From: Rhizodiscina lignyota
Lineage: Eukaryota
Length of the DNA: 64,000 nt
Direction: 5' to 3'
Assembly: GCA_010015805.1 (NCBI GenBank)
Contig: ML978122.1
Location: 62,001 to 126,000 of the forward strand
The notes under the pieces are model-generated. The model did not search any database. It was not told the origin of the DNA and was given only the letters and a program-made list of their open reading frames with translations. Shown here in pieces: positions 7,177 to 25,561 of this stretch. A program made the translations under genes and the position numbers. Position 1 is the first letter of the stretch; the number at the start of each line of letters is the position of its first letter.

Positions 7177-10100
7177 TCAATTCACCGGGTAGAACATTTC
7201 ACCACCAAGCAATACATCCTCTGGCCGACAGATCGCCAACTCTTGAACGTTTGCAACCAGCTCAACAAGGGTTGCATCCACAAATGCTGGGTCCCTTTCG
7301 CTTCCAACCACTCCGACATGCGTCTGTCCGCCTCTCACAAATGAGACGGCTTTCAAAGGATGAGCAGCATCCCCATGTGGATTCAGAATGTCCACCCTGC
7401 AAGTCCTATCTGCAAAAGGCATGGTGTCAAAATCCTCAACATCCTGATGATGAACGATGGAGTCGAAGAATCGTGTATCCGACGGCCATTGCGTGCATTG
7501 CTCGGATATTTTTTCGAACCCGAGGAAGTCATGTGCCGCAGATTCGGCGCTTTGTGTCTGCACGTACTGCAAGAGATCCATTGCTGTCCATTGTGGCTCG
7601 AACAAGACTCTGGTTGGGGTAAACTGGTAACACGGGCCCATGACATTCTCTGCGTACGTGAGTTCGATGTTTCGGCCGGAGGTAATGCTGCCAAATGTCA
7701 CATCCGGTTTCTGAAGACGACGGGCCAGCACCAATGCCCATGCTGCGGTGAGCAAGTTCGCCGTGGTAATCTCCATGGGGCGTTTGGAGATGTCGACGGG
7801 TTTTGCCTGGAATATCGGTTTGTCCGCAGGCTGCCCCAACATCCCGTCCAGAACGGACAGTGATGAGCCTTTCAGAAGATCGCGCCAGTAGTTGATTGCT
7901 TTGGTCTGAGTGCTCTCATCGCGAATTCGCGCCATATATGAGGGGTATGGCTCGAAATCAACAATCTTTCCTCCACTGTACAAAGTCTCCAAATCTCGAA
8001 GCAGCCTCGGCAGAGAGATGCCATCATACTGAGCGTGAGACAGGCGTATTATGAGGCACTCTTGTCCATCGTTACCTTCGACATGGATTAGTTTGAAGAA
8101 AGATGATCCTAGGTGGAAGTTTGATTCTATGTCCATCGTGCAGAGGTCGGTGACGTATTGCTCAATATCCTTGTCAGCCTGTCGCATGGTTACAGGAGCA
8201 TCCAGCTCATCCAGGACAACTTGAAAGAAGATCGATTCATGTCGGATGAAGATGGTGCGCAGAATGTCGTGGGTCTTGACAAGGTCGTTGCAGGCCCGGA
8301 AAAGATGCTCTCGATCAAGGCCCTTGTCAAAGTGCAACATGGTGTATTGTATGGACGTTCTTGGCGCCTGAATGGTTGCTCTGACATCGAGTGCTTGGGA
8401 ATCTGCCACGGGGCATACATCTTGAATAGACCAACGTGGATCGGCAAGCTTCGGTCGGACAATCTCGGTCAAAAAGGGTTCTATGTCCAAATGGCCAAGC
8501 GTCCAATATGGCCTGTAAGACTGGGCTGTCTCTTGCGGCACCTCGTCCACTTTCAACACTCTGGCCGCGTCACCCAGACGCATGTGCCGAAAGATATCGG
8601 CCACTGTCAAGTGATGCCCTTGCACACGGAGGCTTGACACCAATTTCATCGCCAAGACGGAGTCGCCGCCGAGGCGGAAAAAATTGTCATCGACGTCAAT
8701 CTGCTCCGGACTCATTCCAAGAATTTCCCCCCAGGAAACCCGCAGAAGATTCTCTGCAGTTGTAAGATTTGTTTGCGCTGAGCTCTTCGACCAAGCCTCC
8801 TTGAAGCCTTCACGAAGCTGGGTGATCACATCTCGAGGGATGCTCGACGCAAGCTGGTTCAGCACATCGTGATCAATTTGTTCGGCGCTGAGGGGCATTT
8901 TGTCCACGACCACGTACGCAGAGGGGGCCATGTATGATGGAAGAGAGTCTTGGATGAATTTGTCCAGCTTTTTCAGCGCCACAGTAAGGCTCATGGGAAT
9001 AATCGGACAAATAGTTGTCTCAAAGCTTTGCAGGCCCGACATGTCGCAAGTTATATCATGTTTCACCGACATGAGCTCAACACTGTTGTCCTGAGAATGC
9101 TGTTGTTCGATGAAGACGATCAACTCTTGCTCCAATATCTGCTGAGTGCTATCCGACGATGACTGGAATGTCGCTGGCGCGGCACGGATTGTTGATGGGA
9201 GGTGCCTTTTAAGGTGAGCTTGGAAGTCTGCGATATCCACTGCATGGCCTTGAACCGGTATGACGTTCTCCTTTCGACGAACAAATATTAAGCTGCCATC
9301 GTCTCGCAACCGCACCATGTCGCCTGTCGAGTGAACTCTTCCCGTCCGACCGACATAAGCGGAGCTTCCAGCCACGAGCCAGGCTGGAGATTTAATACTT
9401 TCGGTGGACAAGAAGCTTCCTTCAAGCCGGAGTTCGCCAAGACAGCCGATGGGCGATAACAGAGACGAGTTCCGCGGATCACACACCCATGGAACAACCG
9501 CAGGAGGATAGATCGATCCTTGCTTAATGCTTGCATCTGCTCGAAGCCTTCCCGATGACTCGTCTAAGGACAACGGAGGGATTTGGTTCCATCGCCAGAT
9601 CTGATCCAATTCCGCCTCGGGCAGGCAAGATATGTCGCCAATTCTTGTGGAAAAATCGTTTGTCAACTGCAAACAAGCCATTTCTAGCTGCGCGAGGATT
9701 CGTTCCATTTGTGCAACCTCCACGAGGCTACTATCAAAACTTGCGCAGACTCTGAAACCCCCCTTTCGCATCCCGCAGGCCAGCATAAGTGGGTACGGGT
9801 TGAAGTGGAGTGCTTCGCGTACAACATCGCCCTCGTCAAAGCCTAGTTCGCTGGTGACGTACTCTGGTTCTGGCTGGATGACCAAGCCTGTGCCGGCTTC
9901 GCATGCGTGCTGGGCATCTCGGCTGACCTTTCTGATGTTTTGCATCCCCATATGCTGATATGGTGTACGGGCCAACATGCCTCGCTGCACAGTCTGTAGG
10001 TAAGATTCGACAGAGGTCATCCGGTCGATGCGTATCCGCACAGGTAGCGTCGCAATCAATGGACCCACGATACTTTCGACTCCAGGCAACGGAATATCCC

Positions 10101-13100
10101 GACCTGTGAGCGTCTCACCGAACACGACATCGTCACTTCCCGTGTATTGAGACGCCACAAGCGACCATGCACCGCGAATTAACGTTGCCATTGTGAAAGG
10201 CGATCCGGCACTCATCCTGAGGGGTATCTGTCGCTCTAGCATGGCATCCGGAATTGGTAAGAAGTCTCTAGATGGGAGGTGCGGGAACTGAGGTCCGACA
10301 GCACCTTGCAGCTCCCGTCGCCAAAATTCCTGCATAGCGACTTCATCGGTATCACGCACATATTTGGCAAAGTCCCTCATCTGGGCCTGTATCTCGATGT
10401 GCTGCCGTTGCAACGCATTGCTAACTTTGTCCAGTATTAGTGGCTCCGACCACCCATCGTAGAGTACGTGATGAATAGTCCAGACCATGTAACGCTTGCC
10501 ATCGTTCGAATCATCGACAATAGCATATCGAGCTAGACTTTCTCCAAGATCCATCTTCTCGTTCCGATCATTCTCCAGATATTGCGTCAAATCAGTCGAG
10601 TATCTCCAGGAGATGCATTCTTTCACTAAAACTTGCAGGAGGCCAGGCTCTTGGAGCTGAGCCAAGCGAGTGCGTAGTATAGGAGTTGCTGCAACAACCT
10701 CCTCCCATGCTTGTTTCCAGGCTTCAAGACCAATATGTGACGGAATACATGCAACTCTCTGAGCGACATATGCCTCAGTGGATTTGATCGAGAAGGTGAA
10801 CAGTGACTCTTGCGTGGGTGTGCAGGGGAAGATGTCTTCAATGGTTAGCCGATCTGATCCGCAAGCATGTGACGCTTCGAGACAGACGCTTTCGACATTC
10901 CGGGAGATCATTGAAAATGCTGGCGTTTCCATCCTTGTTTGTTCCTTGCAGACGTGGATGACGCCAACCATCTCTGAGAGTGTGGGGTGTCCAAAAATGC
11001 TGGCGACAGTGAGGTCGAGACCTTCTGCTCTACAGACAGGTACAAGCCTCATTGCCATCAAGGAGTCGCCGCCCAAGGCAAAAAAATTGTCCTCAAGTCG
11101 AATGGTTTTTGGATCAAGGCTCAACGACTGGCCCCACGCCTGTCGCAGACGTTGCTCAAGATCACTTAGCTCTCGAGTGGCGTTGATCATTGCGCCTTGA
11201 TCCAACTGTCGCAAGTCGACTGTGGTACCAAACTGCCTGAGTCGTTTGCGATCAGTCTTGCCCGAAATTAGAACAGGGATGCAATTGACCGGTATATTTG
11301 CCGTTGGCACCATATATCGCGGTAATACTTTCGCCAGGTCTGCATCAGCTTCTGATAGCGTTTCGCGCAGCCCGTTGGTGAGCTGCGCCAACCTTAAATC
11401 TGTATGCTCATGTCCCTTCGTGGATTTGGACGCAATGAATGCCACTAACGTAGGTTGTCCCCCAGATCCCAGAGGCGTAATCACCTCAGCGATCACGCTG
11501 GTATCCGGAGGCAGTCTGGCCTTGAGCTGGCTCTCAATTTCACCAAGTTCAACACGTTGTCCACGCAATTTGACCTGCGTGTCTTTCCGTCCAACAAAGA
11601 CAATGCCCCCGGAACCATCAGGGTCGTATTTTCCAAGGTCTCCAGTTTTGTATAGGCGCCCGCCACGGCCAGGATAGCCTTTGTGGCCTGCAACCAGCCA
11701 TGGCGGATCTTTGATGAAGGCGGCTGAGGTCTTGTCGGGGTCATTCAAGTAGCCTTGTCCTACTATCGGGCCCTCAACCAGCAGCTCGCCTACAGCGCCA
11801 ATTGGCATTAGCGATTCGTGATCATTTGGGTCAGTGATCCAGATGGCCGCTCCATTGCCTCCCCCAATGGAGATGTAGTCTCTGCCAGTAGCGGCGCTGC
11901 TGTTGATCGTGCATCCGATGGTACATTCACAGGGACCATAGCCTATGATAATCCTGGTGTCTTGGCCCCAGATCGTAACATCCCTTGCCGAGACCGCCTC
12001 TCCTCCAAGCCCTAGTCCACTGAGCGATGATATAACATCTGGATCTAATATCCGGGCCACTGACGGGGTCAGGCCTGCGTAGTCAACCCGCATTCTTCGC
12101 ATCGCCCCATTGATGTCGTTCAACCGATCCTCGTCGGAGGGGATGCAGAGACAGCCGCCGTTTCCGAGAGTTAATAGCATACTGTCGATACTGACGTCGA
12201 AGGCGTAGGATGCAAAATCAAGAACCCTGGAGGTCTCGGTATAGCCAACTGCTTTCGCTCGAGGAATGGCGCTACTAGTATAAGTTTCGTGAGAGATCTT
12301 GACTCCTTTCGGAGTGCCCGTGCTGCCAGAAGTGAAGATTATGTACATTAGGGCAGATGGTGGCACGGCTGTTAACTCTGGAACGACTTGGGAGTTTGAG
12401 TAGTGTGCAAATGTGTCTTCTTCCACAACGATAAATTTCCCACTCGGTATGACTGACGTCGATAGGTCGCGCTGCCTGCGGGACGTCAGCATTGCCTTTG
12501 CAGTGACCTGTTCCGCCATATTTTGGAGGCGGGCGAGCGGAAGCGTAGGGTCCATAAGCACGAAAGTCGATCCCGCTTTCATCGCTGCAAGCACGGCGAT
12601 AATTGTCCATCTTGACTTCTCAAAGCAAATAGGCAGAAAATCATGCAAGTCAACACCCATTTCTTTGAGCAAGCACGCTACGTGCGTGGAATATTGGTCG
12701 ACTTGGGCATACGTTAAGCTGCCATCCCAGGATGAGATTGCCTCTTTGTCTGGGAATTTTTGAGCTCGTTCGGAAATCATGTCGTGCATGCAAAACGTGT
12801 AAGATGGAGGCAGGAGGTGGTTCCATTCCCATATCTTGTCTAGATCACGTGAATTCGGTCGAATGCAGTCCCCAATAGACGCATCAGGATTCGAAATGCA
12901 CATCTTGACGGTGTCGACCAGTGTCTCGATGTGTCGGGTTACCGCATGTTGCAGCATATTTCCCGTGTACCATACTGGGCGGACCTCGAGACGGTCATTC
13001 CTAAAGCGTATTGCGAGGTGAATGACGCCCTTTGCTCATTATAATTAGCTAATTGATAACTAGGATGGATCATTCACTCACTTCATTTCTCGCCTCCTCC

Positions 13101-13543
13101 GACGTCCGGGACAGAGAACCAGTGCTCAAGAGGAGCGAAGCGGGAAAGGACAAAGCTTCATGTTGGCTTGGTTCAACTGCCATTATGTGACGAGAGATTG
13201 CTACAGCAGCTTGTCCAACAGTACTTTGTAATCCTGTCAAGACCTCGTCCATCGATAGATGTCTATCTCCTGGCTCATGCTCAAAGCCATTCGCTCGACT
13301 TCTGTAAGCCCAATCATAAGATATCTGGCTACTTTCCCGGGTCCGTAAGAGCACGATGAGCCAGGACAGAAGCAATATTTCATCACTCATGCCTGTCGGA
13401 GAGTTGGTTTGACGAGGCACGAGACCGACGATGTCGAAAGACCTGAAGCCATCGCCATCGGGCTGTCCTGAAGACAAACTGCCGACAGATTCATCTTCAG
13501 AGGAACTCTGATCTTGTGTGCCGGCAACCTGTATATAGCCCAT
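7177..13543 (-). CDS. sidD: Fusarinine-type siderophore NRPS SidD/NPS6 (A-T-C-degenerate A-T-C), about 2104 aa
   Basis: Exon 1 (13543-13082) joins in frame across intron 13081-13030. A-domain motifs YIIFTSGSTGTPKG, GYGPCE and YKTGDL; two thiolation motifs FFxLGGDS; condensation motifs HHVLYDG and SHAQYDG; second A domain truncated. Confidence 0.95.
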
Positions 13544-13796
13544 GCTACCTGCAATCCAGCGTGTCTGGTCTTAGGGTCCTGGCGACTGGAGGTTGGGAGG
13601 AAGAGTTCGGTACCGACCTCCCGTTCCATTAACTAGAGCTTCTGCGTGCGTATAACCTCCATGGCGAGACGTGTATTATGCGGTAACGAAAACCAAGTGG
13701 TATTATGGTCAGAGTAAAGTAGAGGTGTAAACAACGTTGTATCCGACCTGCACGGCTCTGCGGACCGAGCCCGCGCTCGCATGGCGATTTGTCATT

Positions 13797-13841
13797 TCAT
13801 CTGATAAGATGAACGCCCTGCGGCTCATCTGATAAGATGAA
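13797..13841. promoter_or_regulatory. Two perfect SreA-type iron-repressor sites upstream of sidD
   Basis: 17-bp direct repeat TCATCTGATAAGATGAA at 13797-13813 and 13825-13841, each containing ATCTGATAA. Confidence 0.85.
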
Positions 13842-14053
13842 AACTCTGCACACGCTAGCGCGTAGTGCAGACATGGTTCCTTACCGTGGAAATGCAACAG
13901 CACGACATGTGTAACAGCACGACATCTGACGAGACGGAAGCCCTCCACCAGGGCGGAAGGCTCAACGCGAACACGGCTCACGCTGCAAAGCGCACAACAA
14001 GGCTCGATTAATTAGATTGATGCTTAAACCTAAAGCGGCATTGCCACGCCGTC

Positions 14054-14944
14054 TCACAGCTTCGAATTCATCCAGTGCGGCGCTCGTTTCTCTACAAACG
14101 CCTGGATCCCCTCGGAGAAATTAGGACTGTCCATCAGACGGGGATACCATTGATCAGCTAGAGTCGACACGGCCTCCTCTACGCTGCTTGCTTCCCAGCT
14201 CAACCGAATCCCTAGGCGACCAACGATCACCGCGTCGGGACTGTTTCTACAAATGTCTTGAGCGACTTGGACCGCCACGCCAGTAACGTCGGCGGCCGAG
14301 TCTACCACGCGAGTAATAAGGCCCCAATCATAGAGCGTCTGCGCGCTCACGTTTCTGCCCGTCAGCACGAGATCGGTGGTGCGTTGCAGTCCAAGAGTGC
14401 GCGTTAACCTTGGCAGACACCCGGCCACAGGCACTATTCCTCGCTTCGCTTCGGGCAGAGAGAAGGTCGCTGAGGAAGCTGCAATTACGAGATCGCAGTT
14501 GGCCACCATCTCGAACCCCCCTCCCATGCATATCCCGTTCACAGCGGCGATGATCGGCTTTTTCCCGCCTCGACGGGGTAGTCCAGCGAGGCCCGGCGCG
14601 GCCATGTCATTGACTACCCCGGCCTTGTTCATCTCGTTCCATTCTGTTCCCGTGTGGCCCTGATCAGTTCTCATCCAGAGAATTTCAATGTAAATGAGGC
14701 ACCCACAAGACGTACCTTGCAAGTCAGCCCCGGTACAGAAGGCCCTCCCAGTGCCTGTGATGATGCCAACCCATAAGCTTTCATCTCGATCGAACAGTTC
14801 CCAAATCTCTTGGATCTCCCGGCTCGTAGTCTTGTCGATACAATTCAGCTTCTCAGGCCTGTTCAACGTAACCTGGATGATGCGTTCATGCGGGAAAGAG
14901 ACATAGAAATGCCCATAGTCTCGGGATCTCGATCTCAGAGACAT
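14054..14944 (-). CDS. sidH: Mevalonyl-CoA hydratase SidH (enoyl-CoA hydratase family), peroxisomal
   Basis: Crotonase motifs LNRPEKLN, FCTGADL, KPIIAAVNG.CMGGGFE and LPE. Intron 14715-14644. C-terminal PTS1 SKL. Divergent from sidF. Confidence 0.9.
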   Translation of the reverse strand: MSLRSRSRDYGHFYVSFPHERIIQVTLNRPEKLNCIDKTTSREIQEIWELFDRDESLWVGIITGTGRAFCTGADLQGTSCGCLIYIEILWMRTDQGHTGTEWNEMNKAGVVNDMAAPGLAGLPRRGGKKPIIAAVNGICMGGGFEMVANCDLVIAASSATFSLPEAKRGIVPVAGCLPRLTRTLGLQRTTDLVLTGRNVSAQTLYDWGLITRVVDSAADVTGVAVQVAQDICRNSPDAVIVGRLGIRLSWEASSVEEAVSTLADQWYPRLMDSPNFSEGIQAFVEKRAPHWMNSKL

Positions 14945-15367
14945 GGAACAGTGGACTGTCGAGAGTGGCTTGCCCTGCAGGATGCACAATTTGCTGACTA
15001 GCTAACCAGCTTCCTCCCTCGACTTTATACTTTATCGTGCCATTTCGTGCTACCACATACGTTCCATCGGCATCCTTACTGCATTAGCTTGCAGAAAGCT
15101 CGTTTACCGAGGTACCCTTGAGTCTCCGTCAAAAGTAATAGCGATGCGGTACCGGTGTTTGTACTGATATGCAGCAACTTGCAGATCGAGGCCCAGAACA
15201 CTAACTACTTAGCTCGCTCATTTGCCCCGCAATCCAGAACAAAAATTACAGTCTACCGCTCTGAGCCTTACTGTAGTATCGTCGAAAGGTCTTGGTCTTT
15301 CACCCTGATCAACGTACGTATATCGTGTCACTACCTTCTTAAGAATCCCTACAACATTGCAATCAAC

Positions 15368-16770
15368 ATGGTATCCGGCTCGGATCCTTCGCAAAGGTAT
15401 CCCCCGGTAAAGCTACCGCACCCTTTTTTGACTACATATCGAGTACACACCATCGCCGAGAGGACGCCGTCCAGGCTTGCTTTAACACTAGATAGCCAAC
15501 CACCCATTGGACGACCTCTACCCCAACCACTACACGTCGACTCACTCTCATGGCTCGATTTATGGTTTAAACCTAAGGATGAATGCCCTCCCAGTTCTAA
15601 CAACAGCTCTTGGGCACGCGCTTGTCGAAGTCCGCAGACCATCTTCGAGTGGACGGGGAATAGCCCACCTTCTTTGGGTCAGATCTGGAATGTGATCCAC
15701 GCAATCTACCTCGCTCATCCGACGTATGAGTATTTCAGACTCACTCTGCTCGGTGCAGAGAAGGACGTCGTTCGGGACGAACTGCTTTCCGCTGGCTTGG
15801 GAATCGAGCATCCGAAGCAATGGCATCGCGTGGACAAAGCGATCGTGGATTTTGAAGAACTTTTGATTCTTCGAAGTGCATTCTGGCAAGGTGCTGGTTC
15901 ACCAGCGGGCCCTCGCCCAATCTGGGTGGTGGGGGATGGTACAGACGGACCTCTACGACAATCGTTGGCCCAATACCCGATCATGCCTGAGAACTATCAC
16001 TTCACAATGAAGTTCCCAGAGGAGGCTGTGTACACTCGTCATCCGATACGTCGCCCCAAACCACATCCAGGATCAATTGTCTACAGTCGCTACGTTCCAG
16101 ACCTTGACGAGCACTTTTCACTCGAAGTGGTTGACTGGCAAGACGAGGAGCACTTGAAGCTCTTCAACACGTGGCAAAATGATCCGCGCGTTGCAGCAGG
16201 CTGGAATGAGACCGGAACCTTGGAGCAGCATCGCGAGTATCTGCGCAAGCTGCACTTTGACCCTCACGTCCTTTGTTTGTTCGGACGCTTCAATGAATCC
16301 CGTTTCGCTTACTTTGAGCTATATTGGGCAAAGGTAACATTCTTAACCAGGTTCGATTTCCCTCAAGTACGGCGTTAATGGTTATATTATGCCCACAGGA
16401 AGATCATTATGGCGCCCATTACGACGCTGGAGACTACGATCGTGGACGCCACTCTCTCGTTGGCGACGCGTCATACCGAGGCTCGAAGAGGGTTAATGCT
16501 TGGTACTCCAGCTGTATCCATTATGTCTTCTTGGACGATCCGCGGACTGCAAACGCCGTGGGCGAGCCAAAAGCCACAGGCTCAACCATCCTGTCTTATG
16601 AGAATGCCCAAGGACTGGTCATCGGCAAGTACATCGACTTGGGCCACAAACGATCCGTCCATTCAATTTCCAGCCGCGAGAAATGGTTTCAGCTGTGTCC
16701 GCTATTTTGGGATGGGCGAGAGAGCCCATTGGAATCCGCTGACCGTGCGGCGTGGAACGCGAAACTCTAG
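15368..16770 (+). CDS. sidF: Hydroxyornithine transacylase SidF (IucB/AlcB-like), peroxisomal
   Basis: Motifs [31 protein letters not shown] and DRGRHSLVG. Intron 16334-16398. C-terminal PTS1 AKL. Confidence 0.92.
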
Positions 16771-17386: not shown

Positions 17387-18371
17387 ATGGCCTCTTCAGG
17401 AAAGGAATTGGACAATGATTTCTTGCACTACCTTGCAAAGCTTCATGCGCCCGCCTCCGGATCATCGTCACGACTAAAATGGTACTTGACAGTAACAGTT
17501 GCCCTCGGAGGCATGCACTATCCAGAATTGATCCCAGACCTCTACAAGAGCCTTCTTACAGATTTTATTCTAGAGAGCGAGCATAAGGCCGAGACTCGTA
17601 AGCTACGAGAGGGATTGACGAAGGCATGTGGAATTTGGGGTGCTGCAAAGGTATGTCGAATTGTAATGACCATTTCTGCTGTACCAAGTCAATTTTTGAA
17701 TTAGCGCTGTATTGAATATAAAACATTTTCGTCCGCATCTTTGGTTAACGGGACCTTTGTAGACAGGGAGTGCAACAAGATGGCTCGCCTCCGCCATCCC
17801 GGAGCACTTGGATGACAAGACATGCTACCGGTAAGGCTCAGCTCTATCACAAGCATAACAAAACACTTAAACGCCTGTGCGAAGGGAAAACGACTCTCGG
17901 GAAGTCGCGCATAAGCGAGGCCAGGAGATGCTGGACAGCATCTATCCCAAAATCCCCGGATACGACACGGGCAAGGTGGAGAGGACAGCGCCGGATTACG
18001 CATGGATCGCTCATGGTGCGCCTCACTTTCGTCTTGTTTCACCTTCGGCGAATACAAGTAAACGAGCATTCCTGTTGAACAGTACGTGCTGATGAGCTAC
18101 AGAGCTACTCTACGGCCACGTCTTCTCTTTTCCGGCAATTCTCGGACAGCTCGAAACCGGACAGGTGATCATAACTGCGCTCGCAAGCACCGACTGTCAG
18201 GAGCAGTTGCGCAATCATATGATGGGTATGATGATCAATGGTGCGACTCGTGAAGAAGTCCAAGGGGTTCGGGCAGTGGTGATGGCTCTAGCAGAGCGTC
18301 TGGGCGTGAGATTCAAGGAGGGGAGAGAGACGATTGAAGTTCCGCACCCGCCCGGGAGCAGTAGATTATAA
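17387..18371 (+). CDS. Carboxymuconolactone decarboxylase/AhpD-like protein with PTS1
   Basis: Four exons join in frame (introns 17651-17762, 17831-17884, 18016-18102). Motifs RKLREGLTKACGIWGAAK, YGHVFS and QLRNHMMG..INGATREE. Ends in SRL. Confidence 0.75.
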
Positions 18372-19510
18372 GTGACATTGTGAAATACAGATACTTGTCT
18401 CAGTTCAGTTCGAAGTCATTTAGAACGCTTCCTCGCCCGCCTGCGCAATGCAGACAAAGCGATGAAAGGTCACAAGGTGAAAGTAGGCGAGCTGAACCTT
18501 CCCCATTTTGATTGATGTTCAACTCAGCCAAGAACTCTCTTGAGATATAAACAGCAAGAAAAAGACAGCCCGAGAATGGACACGTCGAGACACGACAATG
18601 AGGCCACACTCGGCAAGCAAAGTGCTTTCGTCCTCAATGGCAACTGCAAGGCATCGAACAACAGTTACATTGCCTTGTATTCGCGATCCTTTGTTCAGGT
18701 GTCGAACATCGATACTATCGCATCGACTTTATGGATACGGTCAATGCGGTCGATGCGATGCTGCTGTGACACCAGAGACATGATAGCATCTATTTGAAAA
18801 AGCCTGCTATGAGTGTCCACGGCCTATTCCCATGCAGCGCCGGCGCAGTTGTTCGAGCACTTTCGGACCAAAGTGGGCTTGGCGAAGGGGATTCGGCTTC
18901 CTCATCCTCGCTTGAGGTCGACGTCTTCATTTATTCGCCCTCGATTCGGACGATTCCTAGCCATTATTGCAGCGGGGTTCATCGACTGATGATGACCAAA
19001 TATAATTGTTGGAATGGTTGTAGTGGTCGGACTGTTCGACGCTTGAGCGCCGGATGTGGCAAGTATGGTGTTGGTGGTGAAGTGCCGGCGGTCGTGGTTG
19101 TGTGTGTAGAACCAGATGGTTGCTGAGAGCAGATATCTTGATGGCAGAGTACGCGTGCCTAAGTGTCTGTTGTTGTTGCGAAAAAGTTGAGGGGAGAGCC
19201 TAAGGTAAATCTAAGATTGTGCCGTGGGTGTGGATTTTGGCATCGCACGCGACATCAGGAAACTAGAGTGAGAGCGGCAAAAAAGGCTGAGATGCTATGT
19301 TAGTGAGTATGCTATAATCTGAAAATTCTCTTAAGTGCAAGTTATGCAGTGGGCGGTATTTGGGGTAAGATGGCAGCTTTAGACATGTCCTGACCAATTG
19401 CTTAATCAAAGCTTCCCACCTACGACGTAGTGCCGAAATAACTGGGAACAAAAAATAACCAAGAATGAACTGTGAGTGATGCATATAGAGAGAGAAAAAA
19501 AAAAAGGAAG

Positions 19511-19710
19511 AAAAAAAAAAGGACAGTCTTAGTTTCAGCTTTAAGCTTACTCACACCCAGTACCACGAGAAGGTGCTGTCCGTTACTGAGCACCTAAATG
19601 TTAATATTTTGATCGTTTCCGGATTCGAACGCCCTGTGACACACATTAACCGTACCCGTTCTTTTCAGTTTAATCTCTATACCGATTACCCCACAATGCC
19701 CGAAGGCGAT
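19511..19710 (-). ncRNA. Putative Pol III-transcribed structured ncRNA (about 190 nt) with an element antisense to U2 snRNA
   Basis: Read on the minus strand: TATATAA at about -28 (19738-19732); GCC-UUCG-GGC 5' hairpin (19707-19698); A-box-like TGGGGTAATCGG (19693-19682); B box GTTCGAATCC (19630-19621); 7-bp hairpin (19595-19571); T10 then T11 terminators (19520-19495). No cloverleaf. Confidence 0.75.
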
Positions 19711-21569
19711 AGTAAGTAAAACTTATTTTAATTATATAGTCATCATGAAAAATAGCTCATACAGACCGCAGGCGCATCCCCGCCCTGCACCTGTCCTCAA
19801 TAAAACACTGATTAGATTAAGGCGTTCCTTTCCTATTTTCTTCGCCCATTCTCTCCAGTTTCTTGTATCCTTTGTAATACGCAACACAACACTGATTAAT
19901 TGTTTCCAGTATAGCTCTTCAGCAGATTATATGCAGCTGTGACCTGGCTTTGAGGGAGTGACAAAAGATGCTGATCCAAGGAGCAATCGAGATTCAGTGC
20001 GGTACAAGAAATGTGCAACAACAAAAGACACTCTTTACAGCACTTTTGACAGTAAGCAAGGCATGGAGATGAATAGAGAATCAAGGTAATAGAAAGATAA
20101 TCGAGAAGCCTTACAGCGAATCTTGTCACAAAGATGCCATGCGTTTCAGCGCTCAAGCTAGAGCACAGCACATACAACATGCTCCTTGGACGATGCATGC
20201 CTCAGATCATCGCGTTCATAATGTAGTCTTCGAATCTTGATCACGACTTCTCCTAATACTTCCTCAACAGGCCTACGTTTTGCCACGCGTGCCCAAGCAC
20301 CAAGTCAAGGAGTCAGTCATTCTGCTCTTCAGCAGACTGCAATTCAATAACCCCATACCAATGTCAATCACTACAGACGTCCACCGCCGAACCGACCGTT
20401 ACGACCATCGCTTGTTCTTGCACTCGCATACGCACCCACTTCTGCAGATATCTCGAGGCGCCGCATCGATACACCAAATCCTCGAGACAGACCACCTCAG
20501 CATGTTTCAATATGCCTAAGCCCGACGAGGCTCGGTCGCATGGGGACAAAGACGAAGCAACGTCTGCAAGTAAGGTTGAGCTGTCGGTGCGCTAGGTGAG
20601 GCTATACTAGCGAAAGCGAGGTATCACGTCGAAAGGTATCGGGCGGAAGGGATAACTGATTGACGCAGTAATCGTTAGAGCAGACGACAGCGAGATGTCT
20701 GCTTATCTAAAATTAGCGTGATTGCCATTCCAATGGTTGACTTGTCACTGGGTTGCGTGGACGAGTAAGTCGTCTCCATGGGCTGAATCTGAAGCGCTAC
20801 ATTTGCACCGACGATAGCAGGGCCACCAAAAAGAAACAATAAGGTGATCACGGTCTCCTCGATATCTAGATATTGGCCATAACGAAGCAGGACAGTTAAT
20901 CAGAACAGTGATATCTGCATATGGACATAAGACGGAGGCACTCAAAGATGAGACGATGTTCGAGTGGAAAGGCGCGGATCGGAAAAAGTGCGAAAACCGC
21001 GGTCCACATGTAGGGCTGAGATCTGACTCTCTCGCGACCCAGGAGCCCACCTTCCTTGCATCAGTTCCTCTCCAACTATCTCTTCCGAAGAGCAAGAATC
21101 ATCTCTTACATGTAGCAGTGCAACGCTTTACGCTGGAGCTAACCTCATGAAAGCCCAAGAAAACACCACGGTCACGGGAGACGCCTACGCTGAGGATTAC
21201 AATCGGCCCAGGCAGGAGATGCAGACCATGATTGAACCTCAAGTCACAGCACGGCCCAAGTTGCTCTGCATTTTTTAATCGGCAGTACGAGCAAGTCACG
21301 ACCGAAGTCATAGAATCAAGGTTACGGAGTTTAGGAGGCGACAAGGCAACAACTGACCATACGAATGACATCGAATCCGTATCTGAACTGAAAGCCCCGC
21401 GAGATACATCCACCTGAATGGAAGGCAGTGGCCAGGATATTTCTTCTTACGATGCTACCTGTTCTACAAGCGCTCGAAAATATTGTCATGAACGGCTGTA
21501 CAACGCTGTGTACACCACGCCCGTGTGATATTACAATCGGAGACGCATCCCGTCAAGCCCGCTCCAGAA

Positions 21570-22534
21570 CTAAGGAAGTTTCTGATGCCAAATGCATGCT
21601 ATGGAGCCACCAAGGACTAAGCTGAGGAGGATGCTGATGTTTATCATGGATTTGAACATGCGCGCTTTCATGGACCTTTCCGCGCGACCTTGAAATTCCG
21701 GCGTCGTGTTGCCATGCGGGAAAGGTCCATCGGGTACCGGCTGCTCCAGGTACTTGCAAAGCGGCTCCCTGTAATTGTCCGTTAATACTGTCCTCATTCA
21801 AGAAAGCAACTATCGGAGCAAGCATACCAGCCCTCCTCAGCACGCCACTCCAGCGACTGCCGCCCTTGTTCATTCAACACTCCCCTCAAATGCGCATAGT
21901 GCTCTTTGTAAAGCGCTCTTCCCCTAGCATCCCAATTGGAAATCTGCCAAGGTTGAGTAAAATTCGTGCGCCAGATATGGAAATACCAGAACATCTCATT
22001 ATTAAACAGCGACAACAATGCCAAAGTCCAGCTGTTGCCAATTCGGACCAGAGTCTTCGCGATGCTTGTATGCCACGCCTCGACGTCCTCACGGAAATTG
22101 ACAATGACCTTGGCCTCCGGATAACATCGCAACAATTCATCGACAAACATAGAACACGGAAGATCGGTGACCGCTCGACAGTCTGCGAGAATCCGATCAA
22201 AGTCCTGACGCGTCAGGCCAGAGTCGAAATGCCACCATGACATGTCGTTAGGGTTTGTCGCTGGTATCAACCCGCGCTGGCGAGCGATTTGGGCCTTCCA
22301 AGTCATCAGGCGGCAGAATGCTTTGGTGTCTCCCGGATAGCTCCCGCAGACCGTTCCATGGTAGCATGTGCTGTAGCCGAGCTGCTCGAGGGCCTGACGT
22401 AGAGAGTCAGTTCCACTGCGAGAAAGACCTAAAGCCAAGACGGAGAGGGGCTTGTCAGGATGGCGGTGACGGGCTGGTTCTTTGACGGGATATATGAGAG
22501 ATAGGATGCGGTGTGAAAGGGTGGCGGGAGCCAT
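21570..22534 (-). CDS. P-loop sulfotransferase-like protein (Sulfotransfer_4 type) with C-terminal membrane anchor
   Basis: Motifs VLALGLSRSGTDSLRQALEQLGY, AVTDLP, YPEAKVI, and GW|EPLCKYL..PVPDGPFPHGN across intron 21827-21769. Hydrophobic C-terminal tail. Confidence 0.85.
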
Positions 22535-23194
22535 TGAAACTGAGAATTGAAATTCCGTCCCACTGGTACCGCTTCGGAGTAGCCCAAAGCTGGTTCAATG
22601 ACTGGATCTGGTATTTTGCTAGCGTAGATGTACTCCGGAGTGACCAGATTCAAAAAGGTTCAGGCTGTCAGCGACGATAAAAAGGGAGACAAAATGCAAG
22701 AAAGGAGTGAATCACTAGAGAGAGAATACGAAGTGAACAAGCCTCGAACTTTGCTGTTCCTTTATATCGAAATTTCGAACTGAATGATGATCTCAAATTA
22801 GCCAACCTACGCACTTCACTTGGTTCAACGGGTCAGCACCGGGGTGGCAGCTCGCCGAGCAAGCTCGCTCGAACTCGCTGTTTTTCCACGCTTGGAAAGC
22901 CAAACGCGCACTCTGGCGAAAGCATGTCAGCTGAAAAGCGAGCCAAGCAACGAAGTGTCAAGTGAATTTGGTGTGTGATGTAGACTGCAGGCAGCAGGGG
23001 TGCGTGGAAGTGATTTGCAGGCTTGGCCCAAGCTCCTCGGGCGTTTGGATGATCTTCCTCTGAACATCTCTCCACCCCAACCTCCACCTTTCCACACTCC
23101 TCCAAGCTTCATTCATCTTCCACATTCTCTTCTCAAATACACAAAGCATTTCGATTTCCACAGGGAATAGCCATAAAAGGCTGTCTTATTGGAG

Positions 23195-25561
23195 ATGCCT
23201 CCCAAAAAGCGCGCTGCTGCCAAGGCAGCTACTACAACCACTCCACGCCGTAGCGCTCGAGCCGTTGAAGCTACATCCGCGAGTTCACGACCCAAGCGCG
23301 GTGCACCTGACGCGACAATGGACTCTTCAGAGCCGAAATCGAAGAAGACGAGCGCCGCCGCTGAAAAGGACGCGAACAGTGACGTGTCAGAGATCGAGAC
23401 GCAGCCCAAACGTCGCGGCCGGCCCGCTAAAGCTGCTCCTGTAGCTGCCGAAGAACCGTCCACCAACACGACGGAGGCTGCCACTACTGCTGCTCCTGCA
23501 AAACGTGGACGTGGTCGGCCTTCTAAGAAGAAGGAAGAAGTAGAGGAAGAAGCTGTCGAAAAGCCCGAAGAGGAACCAGGAGTGGATCAAGAAGTGGATC
23601 AAGAAGAGAAGGCGCCTGCGCCAAAACGTCGTGGTCGCCCGGCAAAGAAGAGCGGTTCAACTCCTGCCCCAACAGCTGAAGCTGCAAAGACCACGACGCG
23701 AAAGGGCCGATCTGCGCCAAAGCCGGAAGAGCTACCAATTGGTGAGCAGACTCAGCAAGCAGAGGCGAGTGAACAATTGATTCAGGAACAAAAAGACGCA
23801 ATGGAGGAGGAGGAAGCAGCACCTGCGCCGAAGCGCCGAGGACGTCCACCAAAAGCGAAGACTGGACCATCTGCAAAGGCTGATGAGCCTGAACCTACGG
23901 TTGGCAAAAAGCGAGGCCGCGCAGCGAAGGCTCCCGAGACAATCGAGGACGCGGAAGAGGAGGATGAAGGTCGTGCAAAGCGCACCCGGACATCGAAGGC
24001 AGTTGCCGAAGAGCTTCCTACAAAGGAGATTTCCGCGAAGGAGACCGAATCACCATCTAGTGGACGTGGATCCCGTCGCAAGCCTGTGGCTGCTCCAGCT
24101 GCCGCCGAGACAACAATCGCTGCTGATCAAGAACCATCCGTGCCACCCAAGAAGCGTGGCCGACCGAAGAAGGTAGCACTCCCAATTGCTGACGCCGATG
24201 ATACCGCTACTGTCGAGACAACCCTCGCTGCCGATGAAGAACCACTTGTTCCCAAGAAGCGTGGCCAGGCAAAGAAAGCAGCTGACTCAACCATCGAAGC
24301 TGATGATGCAGACGAGCAGGACGAGTCAGCCACAGCAAAGGGCAAAAAGCGCAAGATTGAGACAGCTCCGACAGCAGCTGAACCCGCGCCAAGCAAGCGC
24401 GGCCGCAAGTCTGCGTCTGCTGTTAAAGAGGATGATAAGGTCGTTGCTGAGACTGTTGATATGGATGATGAATATGGTCGACATTTCTGGCTCATGAAGG
24501 CTGAGCCCGAATCACGCATGGAGAAGGGCAAAGACGTCAAGTTCTCCATTGACGACCTCCAAGCTTGCATGGAGCCGGAGCCTTGGACCGGTGTCCGAAA
24601 TGTCGTTGCTCGAAACAACATGATGGCCATGAAAGTCGGCGACCTGGCTTTCTTCTATCACTCCAACACCAAGACACCCGGTATCGCGGGCATCATGGAG
24701 ATTGTGGGCGAGGCCACCGTTGACGAGACTGCCTTCGACGAGAATGATCCCTACTACGACACAAAATATCAGAACCGCGAGCTTCCGAAGTGGTTCCACG
24801 TGCATGTGGAATTCAGGCAGAAGATGCCCAAGTATCTTGGTCTGCCCGAGCTTAAGGAGCACAAGGACGGCAAGCTCAGCCAGATGCAGTTGTTCAAGCA
24901 GAGCCGTCTGAGCGTCTCCAAGGTTAGCAAGGAAGAGTGGGACTTCATCATGGAGCTCTGTGGTGCAGAGCCGGTTCCCCCAACTGATCGCGGCCCAACT
25001 ACGCGCAATGACTCTGCCGAGAAGAAGGATACTCAAGCAGCCTCATCTTCGAAAGCGAACGGATTCCTGTCTGCCAAATCTGGACGCAAGACTTCGCGTG
25101 CGGCGTCTCTCGGCCCAACCTTGCAAACACCAGCTCCAACGTCCAAGCTTCGCTCCAGTTCCGCCCAGCCTTCCTTCGACCCTGCTCTTACCCAGTCTTC
25201 TGTGCTCGCCAGCGTTGCTGAGGACGATGTGGCTGGAACTGTCCCTCCGGCTTTCGTGCTGAGGAGCAGCCCGCCGGCACCTGGTGCTGGAACCGAGCAA
25301 GCTAACGGAAATCCCGCCGCTACAAATGAAGCTGCTGGACAGGATGGTGCCAACTCCGTAAAGGAGTCTGCTTGGCTCGCGGGCCTGGTTCCCTCTATGG
25401 GCGCAGGCGAACAAACACTAGCTGGTGCAGAGCCAGACATGACGATGACGATGGGAGATATGAGCGCTCCTCCAGTTCCCGGCATCGCTTTCCCCAAGAC
25501 TCCTGTGGAGGAGGCCATGAAGCAAGCACAGGGAGATATGGAGAGCAGCTTCACTATGTGA
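23195..25561 (+). CDS. AT-hook and EVE (DUF55/THYN1-like) domain protein
   Basis: At least five RGRP AT-hook cores in a low-complexity N-terminus. EVE motifs WLMKAEP, WTGVRN, GDLAFFYHS, DPYYD and SRLSV at about 24480-24960. Confidence 0.88.
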   Translation: MPPKKRAAAKAATTTTPRRSARAVEATSASSRPKRGAPDATMDSSEPKSKKTSAAAEKDANSDVSEIETQPKRRGRPAKAAPVAAEEPSTNTTEAATTAAPAKRGRGRPSKKKEEVEEEAVEKPEEEPGVDQEVDQEEKAPAPKRRGRPAKKSGSTPAPTAEAAKTTTRKGRSAPKPEELPIGEQTQQAEASEQLIQEQKDAMEEEEAAPAPKRRGRPPKAKTGPSAKADEPEPTVGKKRGRAAKAPETIEDAEEEDEGRAKRTRTSKAVAEELPTKEISAKETESPSSGRGSRRKPVAAPAAAETTIAADQEPSVPPKKRGRPKKVALPIADADDTATVETTLAADEEPLVPKKRGQAKKAADSTIEADDADEQDESATAKGKKRKIETAPTAAEPAPSKRGRKSASAVKEDDKVVAETVDMDDEYGRHFWLMKAEPESRMEKGKDVKFSIDDLQACMEPEPWTGVRNVVARNNMMAMKVGDLAFFYHSNTKTPGIAGIMEIVGEATVDETAFDENDPYYDTKYQNRELPKWFHVHVEFRQKMPKYLGLPELKEHKDGKLSQMQLFKQSRLSVSKVSKEEWDFIMELCGAEPVPPTDRGPTTRNDSAEKKDTQAASSSKANGFLSAKSGRKTSRAASLGPTLQTPAPTSKLRSSSAQPSFDPALTQSSVLASVAEDDVAGTVPPAFVLRSSPPAPGAGTEQANGNPAATNEAAGQDGANSVKESAWLAGLVPSMGAGEQTLAGAEPDMTMTMGDMSAPPVPGIAFPKTPVEEAMKQAQGDMESSFTM

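Follow-up and report, generated by a model that had tools for sequence, protein, structure and literature searches.

Fungal genomes contain up to 20 copies of the U6 small nuclear RNA (snRNA) gene, and in Schizosaccharomyces pombe the B block of this RNA polymerase III (Pol III) gene lies inside an mRNA-type intron that is thought to have entered by reverse splicing (PMC5855946; this source and the two that follow are cited from excerpts). The 4.5SH and 4.5SI genes of rodents, transcribed by Pol III, are multi-copy and lineage-restricted and derive from short interspersed elements (SINEs); they contain a TATA-like box at −31/−24 in addition to A and B boxes, and 4.5SH acts in splicing control via an antisense stretch (PMC10137851). 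In a filamentous ascomycete, low-copy tRNA-related SINEs of 140–493 bp have been described (PMC5063351). Here, we describe a locus that recalls each of these systems in part: a minus-strand unit at 19495–19740 of a 64-kb stretch of Rhizodiscina lignyota DNA (assembly GCA_010015805.1, contig ML978122.1, positions 62,001–126,000; hereafter the window, whose positions serve as coordinates throughout).

Two features of this locus are unusual: a long conserved match antisense to U2 snRNA and an intron-like insert that holds the B box. An earlier reading made from the letters of the DNA (the sequence-only reading) had presented the locus as an orphan Pol III-type RNA gene with an antisense element to U2, and had suggested that its RNA might act on U2 as a chaperone, sequestering agent or regulator. 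The antisense element is borne out below; the word 'orphan' is not, as the unit is repeated in the same genome in about five copies. Tentatively, we favour the reading that the locus belongs to a lineage-specific, multi-copy family of Pol III small RNAs that would be able to pair with U2.

Complementarity to the stem IIa region of U2 snRNA

The minus-strand 21-mer AGAGATTAAACTGAAAAGAAC matches, letter for letter, the reverse complement of U2 snRNA model positions 42–62 as found in environmental fungal U2 genes. In the Rfam alignment, these positions begin with the linker that follows the branch-point-recognition sequence, continue through the 5′ strand and loop of stem IIa and end two bases into its 3′ strand. 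The 21-mer occurs once in the window even when up to 3 mismatches are allowed, and 0 of 100 shuffles gave any match. A metagenome collection scanned with the same 21-mer (one letter degenerate) returned at least 117 loci. Among the 117 matches listed, the U2 branch-point-recognition sequence directly adjoins the 21-mer on the opposite strand in 109, and the remaining eight (L001, L006, L035, L047, L078, L092, L093 and L109) are U2-like with insertions or variants. When 22 of the loci were submitted to Rfam, 21 were returned as U2 above the gathering score (19/20 and 7/7 in two sets with five loci in common), L078 being the miss. Because every one of these loci was selected for the 21-mer, the result establishes it as a common fungal U2 word and does not show that the U2 of R. 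lignyota carries it.

A profile built from 91 of those metagenome U2 genes gave a single match in the window (plus strand, 19652–19678, 27 nt, E value 5.6e-5), the next match having an E value of 1.2. Read from the minus strand, a transcript of the locus would form 28 uninterrupted Watson–Crick/G-U pairs with U2, three of them G-U, or 29 pairs if spliced. The 28-pair run corresponds to positions 37–64 of the L010 U2 gene, that is, U2 model positions 36–63; in 100 shuffles, the longest such run averaged 11.15 pairs and never exceeded 15. Cofolding of the paired stretches returned −39.5 and −41.1 kcal/mol, compared with −4.8 for the stem IIa stretch of U2 itself.

The profile aligns in sense on the plus strand, and an alternative is therefore that the plus strand is the functional one, its transcript carrying a 27-nt sense fragment of U2 as a pseudogene relic or a mimic of stem-loop IIa. 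Splice-like motifs are also present on that strand, namely a 3′-site-like TTTTCAG and a 5′-site-like GTAAGT (19712–19717; the same letters as the minus-strand CTTACT of Table 1). However, the 3′-site-like motif precedes the 5′-site-like one, the U2 likeness stops after 27 nt, and there is no convincing reading frame (hand translations of 20–90 aa matched no family, and Pfam returned nothing for 19640–19939). Furthermore, every Pol III-type motif (TATA box, A box, B box and T-runs) is in minus-strand orientation. Within the match, the two positions that depart from U2 (19654 and 19656) are T-to-C on the plus strand, so that each becomes a G-U pair in a minus-strand RNA. Taken together, these points make a plus-strand function very unlikely. 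A plus-strand coding exon was rejected as well.

Within the literature searched, an 18-mer of the U2-antisense stretch is printed nowhere in either strand or alphabet, and no relevant title on RNAs complementary to U2 or on new fungal Pol III RNAs was returned.

Several of the environmental fungal U2 genes carry insertions resembling spliceosomal introns (L035, L006, L009, L001, L093 and L047). The L035 insertion lies between model positions 38 and 39, and L001, L047 and L093 have one just 5′ of the branch-point-recognition sequence. Inserts of 63–64 nt follow stem IIa in L009 and L001, and in L006 a 63-nt insert replaces model positions 50–65 (16 positions), inside stem IIa. The older literature already describes introns in fungal U2 genes.

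A repeated unit with unrelated flanks

Evidence for further copies comes from the contigs of a public sequencing run (X1, kind not on record). The run matches the flanks of the locus with 0 differences over 17500–19573 and 19699–22000, which indicates that it comes from the same organism and is perhaps the source of the window. Two long unique contigs break at the locus, one ending at 19573 and the other beginning at 19699, and the summed depth rises from 155 in the flanks to 1177 and 982 in the bins 19463–19613 and 19614–19764. Twenty contig records lie on the stretch, three of which are less than 90 % alike. A 146-nt contig over 19567–19713 has a depth of 649, about 4.2 times that of single-copy contigs (141–166), and a 46-nt contig over 19532–19577 has a depth of 556. 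At least four further contigs of single-copy depth (141–166; 14,201, 81, 2,690 and 80,240 nt long) end within 19684–19756 with 4–6 differences and then diverge. Loose contig ends accumulate at 19548 and, on the opposite side, at 19737, 19742 and 19756; beyond them, consensus agreement is 0.58–0.66, near the value for unrelated flanks. The genome holds about five copies: the candidate and about four others that share an identical core differing from that of the candidate. More diverged copies possibly exist beyond these.

The flank contigs of four other copies align up to or through the TATA box, within which identity is not resolved. These contigs separate at about 19715, pointing to a putative transcribed core that is identical among the copies and to an upstream 30 nt that is only similar. 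Likeness that sets in around the TATA box, stops shortly before the T-run and gives way to unlike sequence outside is the pattern of dispersed Pol III gene families, and it agrees with the Pol III-type layout proposed by the sequence-only reading. The locus would then be one diverged copy of a small dispersed family with units of about 180–195 bp.

With about five copies in the genome, a SINE-like selfish element becomes a serious rival. The unit would be a non-autonomous Pol III retroposon carrying an inverted, U2-derived fragment without a role, and its copies would be recent insertions. In its favour, the unit is dispersed and multi-copy, with sharp ends and unrelated flanks, about four copies have the same 146-nt core, and A and B boxes are present; the ascomycete elements of PMC5063351 show that low-copy SINEs of this size occur in a filamentous ascomycete. 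Against it, the likeness between copies begins about 30 nt upstream of the putative start and takes in the TATA box, unlike what is expected of a retrocopy of a transcript. The candidate, the one copy read for this purpose, has neither a flanking direct repeat of at least 9 nt, and hence no target-site duplication, nor an A-rich tail. The differences between paralogues are clustered rather than spread (see below), and no tRNA is recognisable even when introns are allowed. Of a tRNA-type head, A- and B-box-like motifs are present and a cloverleaf is not. We consider a purely selfish retroposon somewhat unlikely.

Set beside AfuSINE2-type elements, the unit is likewise short, dispersed and of low copy number, with Pol III promoter motifs; it differs in having no recognisable tRNA head or target-site duplication and in a likeness that includes the upstream TATA box. 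By eye, no sequence is shared with the excerpted part of PMC5063351, and the 21-mer is in none of the 13 AfuSINE sequences of its Table 1. The gene-family and SINE-like readings are not exclusive in origin, because the rodent 4.5SH and 4.5SI genes themselves arose from SINEs; the family may have begun as a SINE-like element in the same way.

Other classes of mobile element were rejected: a miniature inverted-repeat transposable element, as the unit ends without a terminal inverted repeat; an introner-like element, as its ends are not GT...AG; and a solo long terminal repeat. With blastn-short, the 266-nt unit found no second copy in the window or in the 117 listed metagenome loci; the matches besides the 21-mer were short and low-scoring, the best being 22 nt at 86 % identity, and most lay in T-runs.

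One contig of run X1, at a depth (154) typical of a single copy, runs from 19576 straight to 19658; the 81 nt in between, which hold the entire intron-like segment, are missing from it. Its shorter side comprises only 21 letters, which is the length of the U2-complementary 21-mer. This contig may represent an internally deleted copy of the family.

Layout of the unit and its intron-like segment

Motifs were read directly off the minus strand and compared with consensus sequences for the A box, B box, splice sites and branch site (Table 1). Their arrangement is that of a Pol III gene as laid out in PMC5855946, with a TATA box near −30, an internal A block, a B block in an intron-like insert and a T-run. 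The sequence-only reading had described a TATA box at about −28, a U6-like 5′ hairpin, A and B boxes, two internal helices and double oligo-T terminators, and had placed them correctly within a base or two. Each of these was found again except that one of the helices, GUUAAUGU/AUAUUAAC, is broken in the main paralogue; the other, AGGUGCU/AGCACCU, reads as described. The B-box 10-mer GTTCGAATCC occurs once in the 64-kb window.

Table 1. Features of the repeated unit and its surroundings (window coordinates; minus-strand features are listed in the direction of reading where a dash is used)
Feature	Position	Strand	Remark
Repeated unit	19532..19742	minus	Other loci of the same genome at least 80 % alike; ends approximate (19532–19548; 19737–19756)
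TATA box TATATAAT	19738–19731	minus	−28 if +1 is the A at 19710
CTTACT	19716–19711	minus	Just upstream of the putative start
Putative start (A of ATCGCC)	19710	minus	
5′ hairpin GCC(UUCG)GGC	19707–19698	minus	
A-box-like motif TGGGGTAATCGG	19693–19682	minus	+18 to +29
21-mer AGAGATTAAACTGAAAAGAAC	19678–19658	minus	U2-complementary core
28-pair run with U2 snRNA	19652..19679	minus	3 of 28 pairs G-U
Intron-like segment, 62 nt	19655–19594	minus	Contains the B box; splicing putative
5′-site-like GTACGG	19655–19650	minus	Start of the intron-like segment
B box GTTCGAATCC	19630–19621	minus	About 50 nt beyond the A box
Branch-like heptamer TATTAAC	19606–19600	minus	In the intron-like segment
3′-site-like TTTAG	19598–19594	minus	TAG ends the intron-like segment at 19594
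7-bp hairpin AGGTGCT/AGCACCT	19595–19589 and 19577–19571	minus	11-nt loop
GTGAGTAAG	19554–19546	minus	3′ edge of the shared unit
Two T-runs, Pol III terminator-like	T10 19520–19511; second 19505–19496	minus	

The 62-nt segment 19655–19594 has a putative 5′ site, branch site and 3′ site in that order. It resembles a spliceosomal intron with the B box inside it, an arrangement known from the U6 gene of S. pombe. In order to compare copies, the main paralogue (the core shared by the other copies) was rebuilt by applying the listed differences to the window copy, giving the expected length of 146; the contig alignment lists differences only where they lie about 31 nt or more from the aligned ends. 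The candidate and the main paralogue differ by 9 substitutions and 3 one-letter indels listed. Eleven of these 12 differences fall within 19604–19645 (42 nt, inside the intron-like segment), the remaining one being at 19679. Only 36 of 200,000 random placements were as tight, and the binomial P value for the 62-nt intron-like span is 5.5e-4.

The U2-antisense 21-mer is unchanged in the main paralogue, in a region that is fully reported under either reading of the difference count, and the change at 19679 extends the perfect complement of U2 to 22 nt. The main paralogue also reads like the U6 ACAGAGA box; the U2 complement itself accounts for this reading. Within the intron-like segment, the B box of the main paralogue is altered and still lies one letter from consensus, and the one-letter change at 19604 turns the branch-like heptamer into the canonical yeast-type branch sequence. 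The 7-bp hairpin AGGUGCU/AGCACCU is free of listed differences; differences near the contig end would go unlisted there.

Compared with fungal U6 genes as described in the excerpts of PMC5855946, the unit is alike in its upstream TATA box, 5′ stem-loop, A block within the first 30 nt, T-run terminator and several dispersed copies per genome, and the S. pombe U6 gene likewise has its B block in an intron-like insert beside a U2-pairing stretch. In contrast, the candidate has no U6 sequence core (no Rfam U6 match on 81 nt at an E value of up to 10), and it would pair with U2 positions 36–63, whereas U6 pairs with the region 5′ of the branch-point-recognition sequence.

Two further observations concern the edges of the unit. 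CTTACT is complementary to the AGTAAG (19551–19546) within GTGAGTAAG, and the ends of the RNA could pair if the start lay a few bases earlier. An inverted repeat of 22 nt (82 % complementary; 19303–19324 versus 19533–19554) has one arm overlapping the 3′ edge of the repeated unit.

Comparison with catalogued RNAs and folding

Rfam returned nothing at the gathering score across the whole window, so that the check for an already catalogued family suggested by the sequence-only reading came back negative. With E values of up to 10 allowed, the 801 nt of 19200–20000 gave four chance-level matches (E value 1.9–6: SNORD97, TB11Cs2H1, drz-agam-1 and FuFi-1), and the 81 nt of 19635–19715 gave none. 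U6 (RF00026) was not matched on either of these unspliced sequences at that limit. U2 (RF00004) had no Rfam match at the locus, where the alignment to our U2 profile is confined to 27 nt of the opposite strand. ARAGORN found 0 tRNA genes in the window, 0 in 19400–19800 with introns allowed and thresholds lowered, and 0 in the rebuilt paralogue. The locus is thus not U2, U6 or a tRNA, as the sequence-only reading had held. A tRNA with an intron was rejected as ARAGORN found no cloverleaf, and six low-threshold ARAGORN matches in mitochondrial mode were discarded as noise. Pfam recognised no family in an open frame at the locus, nor in any of the frames tested between about 19123 and 21556.

The locus also does not show the layout of a box C/D small nucleolar or small Cajal body-specific RNA (terminal C and D boxes, a terminal stem and a guide ending at D or D′). 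A guide of this type would methylate U2, using the CTGA inside the 21-mer (19668–19665) as its D′ box, and the elements that could serve it are a second CTGA at 19538–19535 and a C-box-like ATGATGA at 19746–19740 on the minus strand, just upstream of the TATA box. However, the heptamer falls outside the unit common to most copies, given that likeness ends at 19737–19742 in three of the four flank contigs displayed. The earlier statement that there is no C box stands for the shared unit and needs qualifying for the sequence next to it. Furthermore, the complementarity to U2 runs through and past CTGA, which a guide would not need, there is no terminal stem, and no Rfam snoRNA match comes near its threshold; that to SNORD97 reaches 18.4 bits against a gathering score of 45 and sits on the T-run region. 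We find a C/D guide hardly credible.

The 189-nt RNA has a predicted folding energy of −38.6 kcal/mol, whereas its shuffles average −45.2 kcal/mol (z +1.74), and 194 of the 200 shuffles were at least as stable; for the putative precursor and the putative spliced form, z is +0.93 and +1.17. Such values count in favour of an untranscribed repeat at the DNA level, in which the Pol III-like motifs and the U2 match would be a chance constellation or a relic, for example a fragment of a larger element. By our own estimate, scanning very many windows will also yield some chance 21-mer matches to snRNAs. Set against this are the motifs, whose order and spacing on a single strand are as they should be (TATA box at −28, A box at +18, B box about 50 nt later, T-run last), the 100 shuffles, none of which gave the 21-mer even with 3 mismatches, and the E value of the U2 profile match. 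Moreover, the likeness between copies ends at the TATA box on one side and in the region preceding the terminator on the other. An untranscribed repeat is, in our view, distinctly unlikely.

Weighing a proposed family of U2-pairing RNAs

Under the gene-family reading, the unit would be a fungal Pol III gene of U6/tRNA hybrid type, from which Pol III would make a precursor of about 180–190 nt; splicing of the precursor, if it occurs, would leave an RNA of about 120 nt. Nucleotides 32–59 of the RNA would pair with U2 model positions 36–63, and the duplex would span the last three or four bases of the branch-point-recognition sequence (its 3′ half), the linker and most of stem-loop IIa. As this duplex is predicted to be far more stable than U2 stem IIa, the RNA would hold U2 in a state unable to fold stem IIa or to bind the branch site.

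Several points weigh against this reading. The RNA folds no better than shuffled sequence (z +1.74, +0.93 and +1.17 for the three forms above), and helix GUUAAUGU/AUAUUAAC is not kept in the main paralogue. The count given with the contig alignment ('other letters 12, gaps 3') may conceal up to 3 substitutions near the ends of the 146-nt contig, and if these exist, the P value for clustering becomes about 0.015 (hand arithmetic). The four identical cores, in which the intron-like part is identical too, could equally stem from a recent burst of a mobile element or from gene conversion. Among the 117 metagenome matches listed, nearly all of which are U2 genes, no locus has the flanks of the family, and a family-specific 27-mer had 0 matches in the genome_contigs collection and 0 in viral_contigs. 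Finally, splicing might be expected to suffer if an RNA with 28 pairs to U2 were abundant.

The rodent 4.5SH and 4.5SI genes offer a parallel for such a family, as far as the excerpts of PMC10137851 describe them: they too are multi-copy and lineage-restricted, with a Pol III-type layout of A and B boxes and a TATA-like box, and an antisense stretch. They belong to another kingdom and have no sequence relation to the candidate, the target of 4.5SH is antisense B1 in pre-mRNA whereas that of the candidate would be an snRNA, and the rodent genes lack an intron-like insert.

A second parallel was drawn by the sequence-only reading. U4 snRNA pairs at length with U6 and keeps it from its active fold. 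The candidate would resemble U4 by analogy, as a small RNA pairing at length with a spliceosomal snRNA. In contrast, U4 is conserved, is transcribed by Pol II and has an Sm site; none of this is seen at the candidate, whose pairing would be one 28-bp helix and whose function is putative.

A more specific form of the gene-family reading is that the family represents a fungal 'anti-U2' Pol III RNA, pairing with U2 positions 35/36–63 and holding or escorting inactive U2 at or near the spliceosome, with an intron of its own that entered by reverse splicing. We regard this combination as unlikely. An RNA sitting at the catalytic centre could, we propose, acquire an intron by reverse splicing, as has been proposed for U6 introns. 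The exon–intron junction of the RNA would lie opposite U2 positions 39|40, one nt from the intron site of the L035 U2 gene (38|39); this nearness is suggestive, but we treat it as a coincidence and not as evidence.

If the RNA is made and bound to U2, it would give U2 a first dedicated RNA partner beyond the U2/U6 pairing, and its gene would be the first Pol III gene besides U6 with a spliceosomal-type intron. The switching of U2 between the branch-point-interacting stem-loop and stem IIa would become accessible through it, and it would allow the idea that snRNA introns arise by reverse splicing to be tested on a natural case. Should the unit be only a SINE-like repeat, it would still be a new low-copy fungal Pol III element with an antisense snRNA-derived piece, a modest addition.

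Genomic context

On the plus strand, the neighbour of the locus is a match to the carboxymuconolactone decarboxylase family at 18096–18368 (23.0 bits, right at the cut-off of 23), and on the minus strand a sulfotransferase gene lies at 21797–22594. Farther away, a gene group at 7180–16767 comprises a 1952-aa open frame (7180–13035, minus strand), an enoyl-CoA hydratase (14057–15001, minus strand) and an intron-split Acetyltransf_8 GNAT gene (15122–16767, plus strand); this group resembles a fungal hydroxamate-siderophore cluster. On the other side of the locus, a 794-aa open frame (23177–25558, plus strand) encodes an EVE domain (Pfam, E value 7.5e-44).

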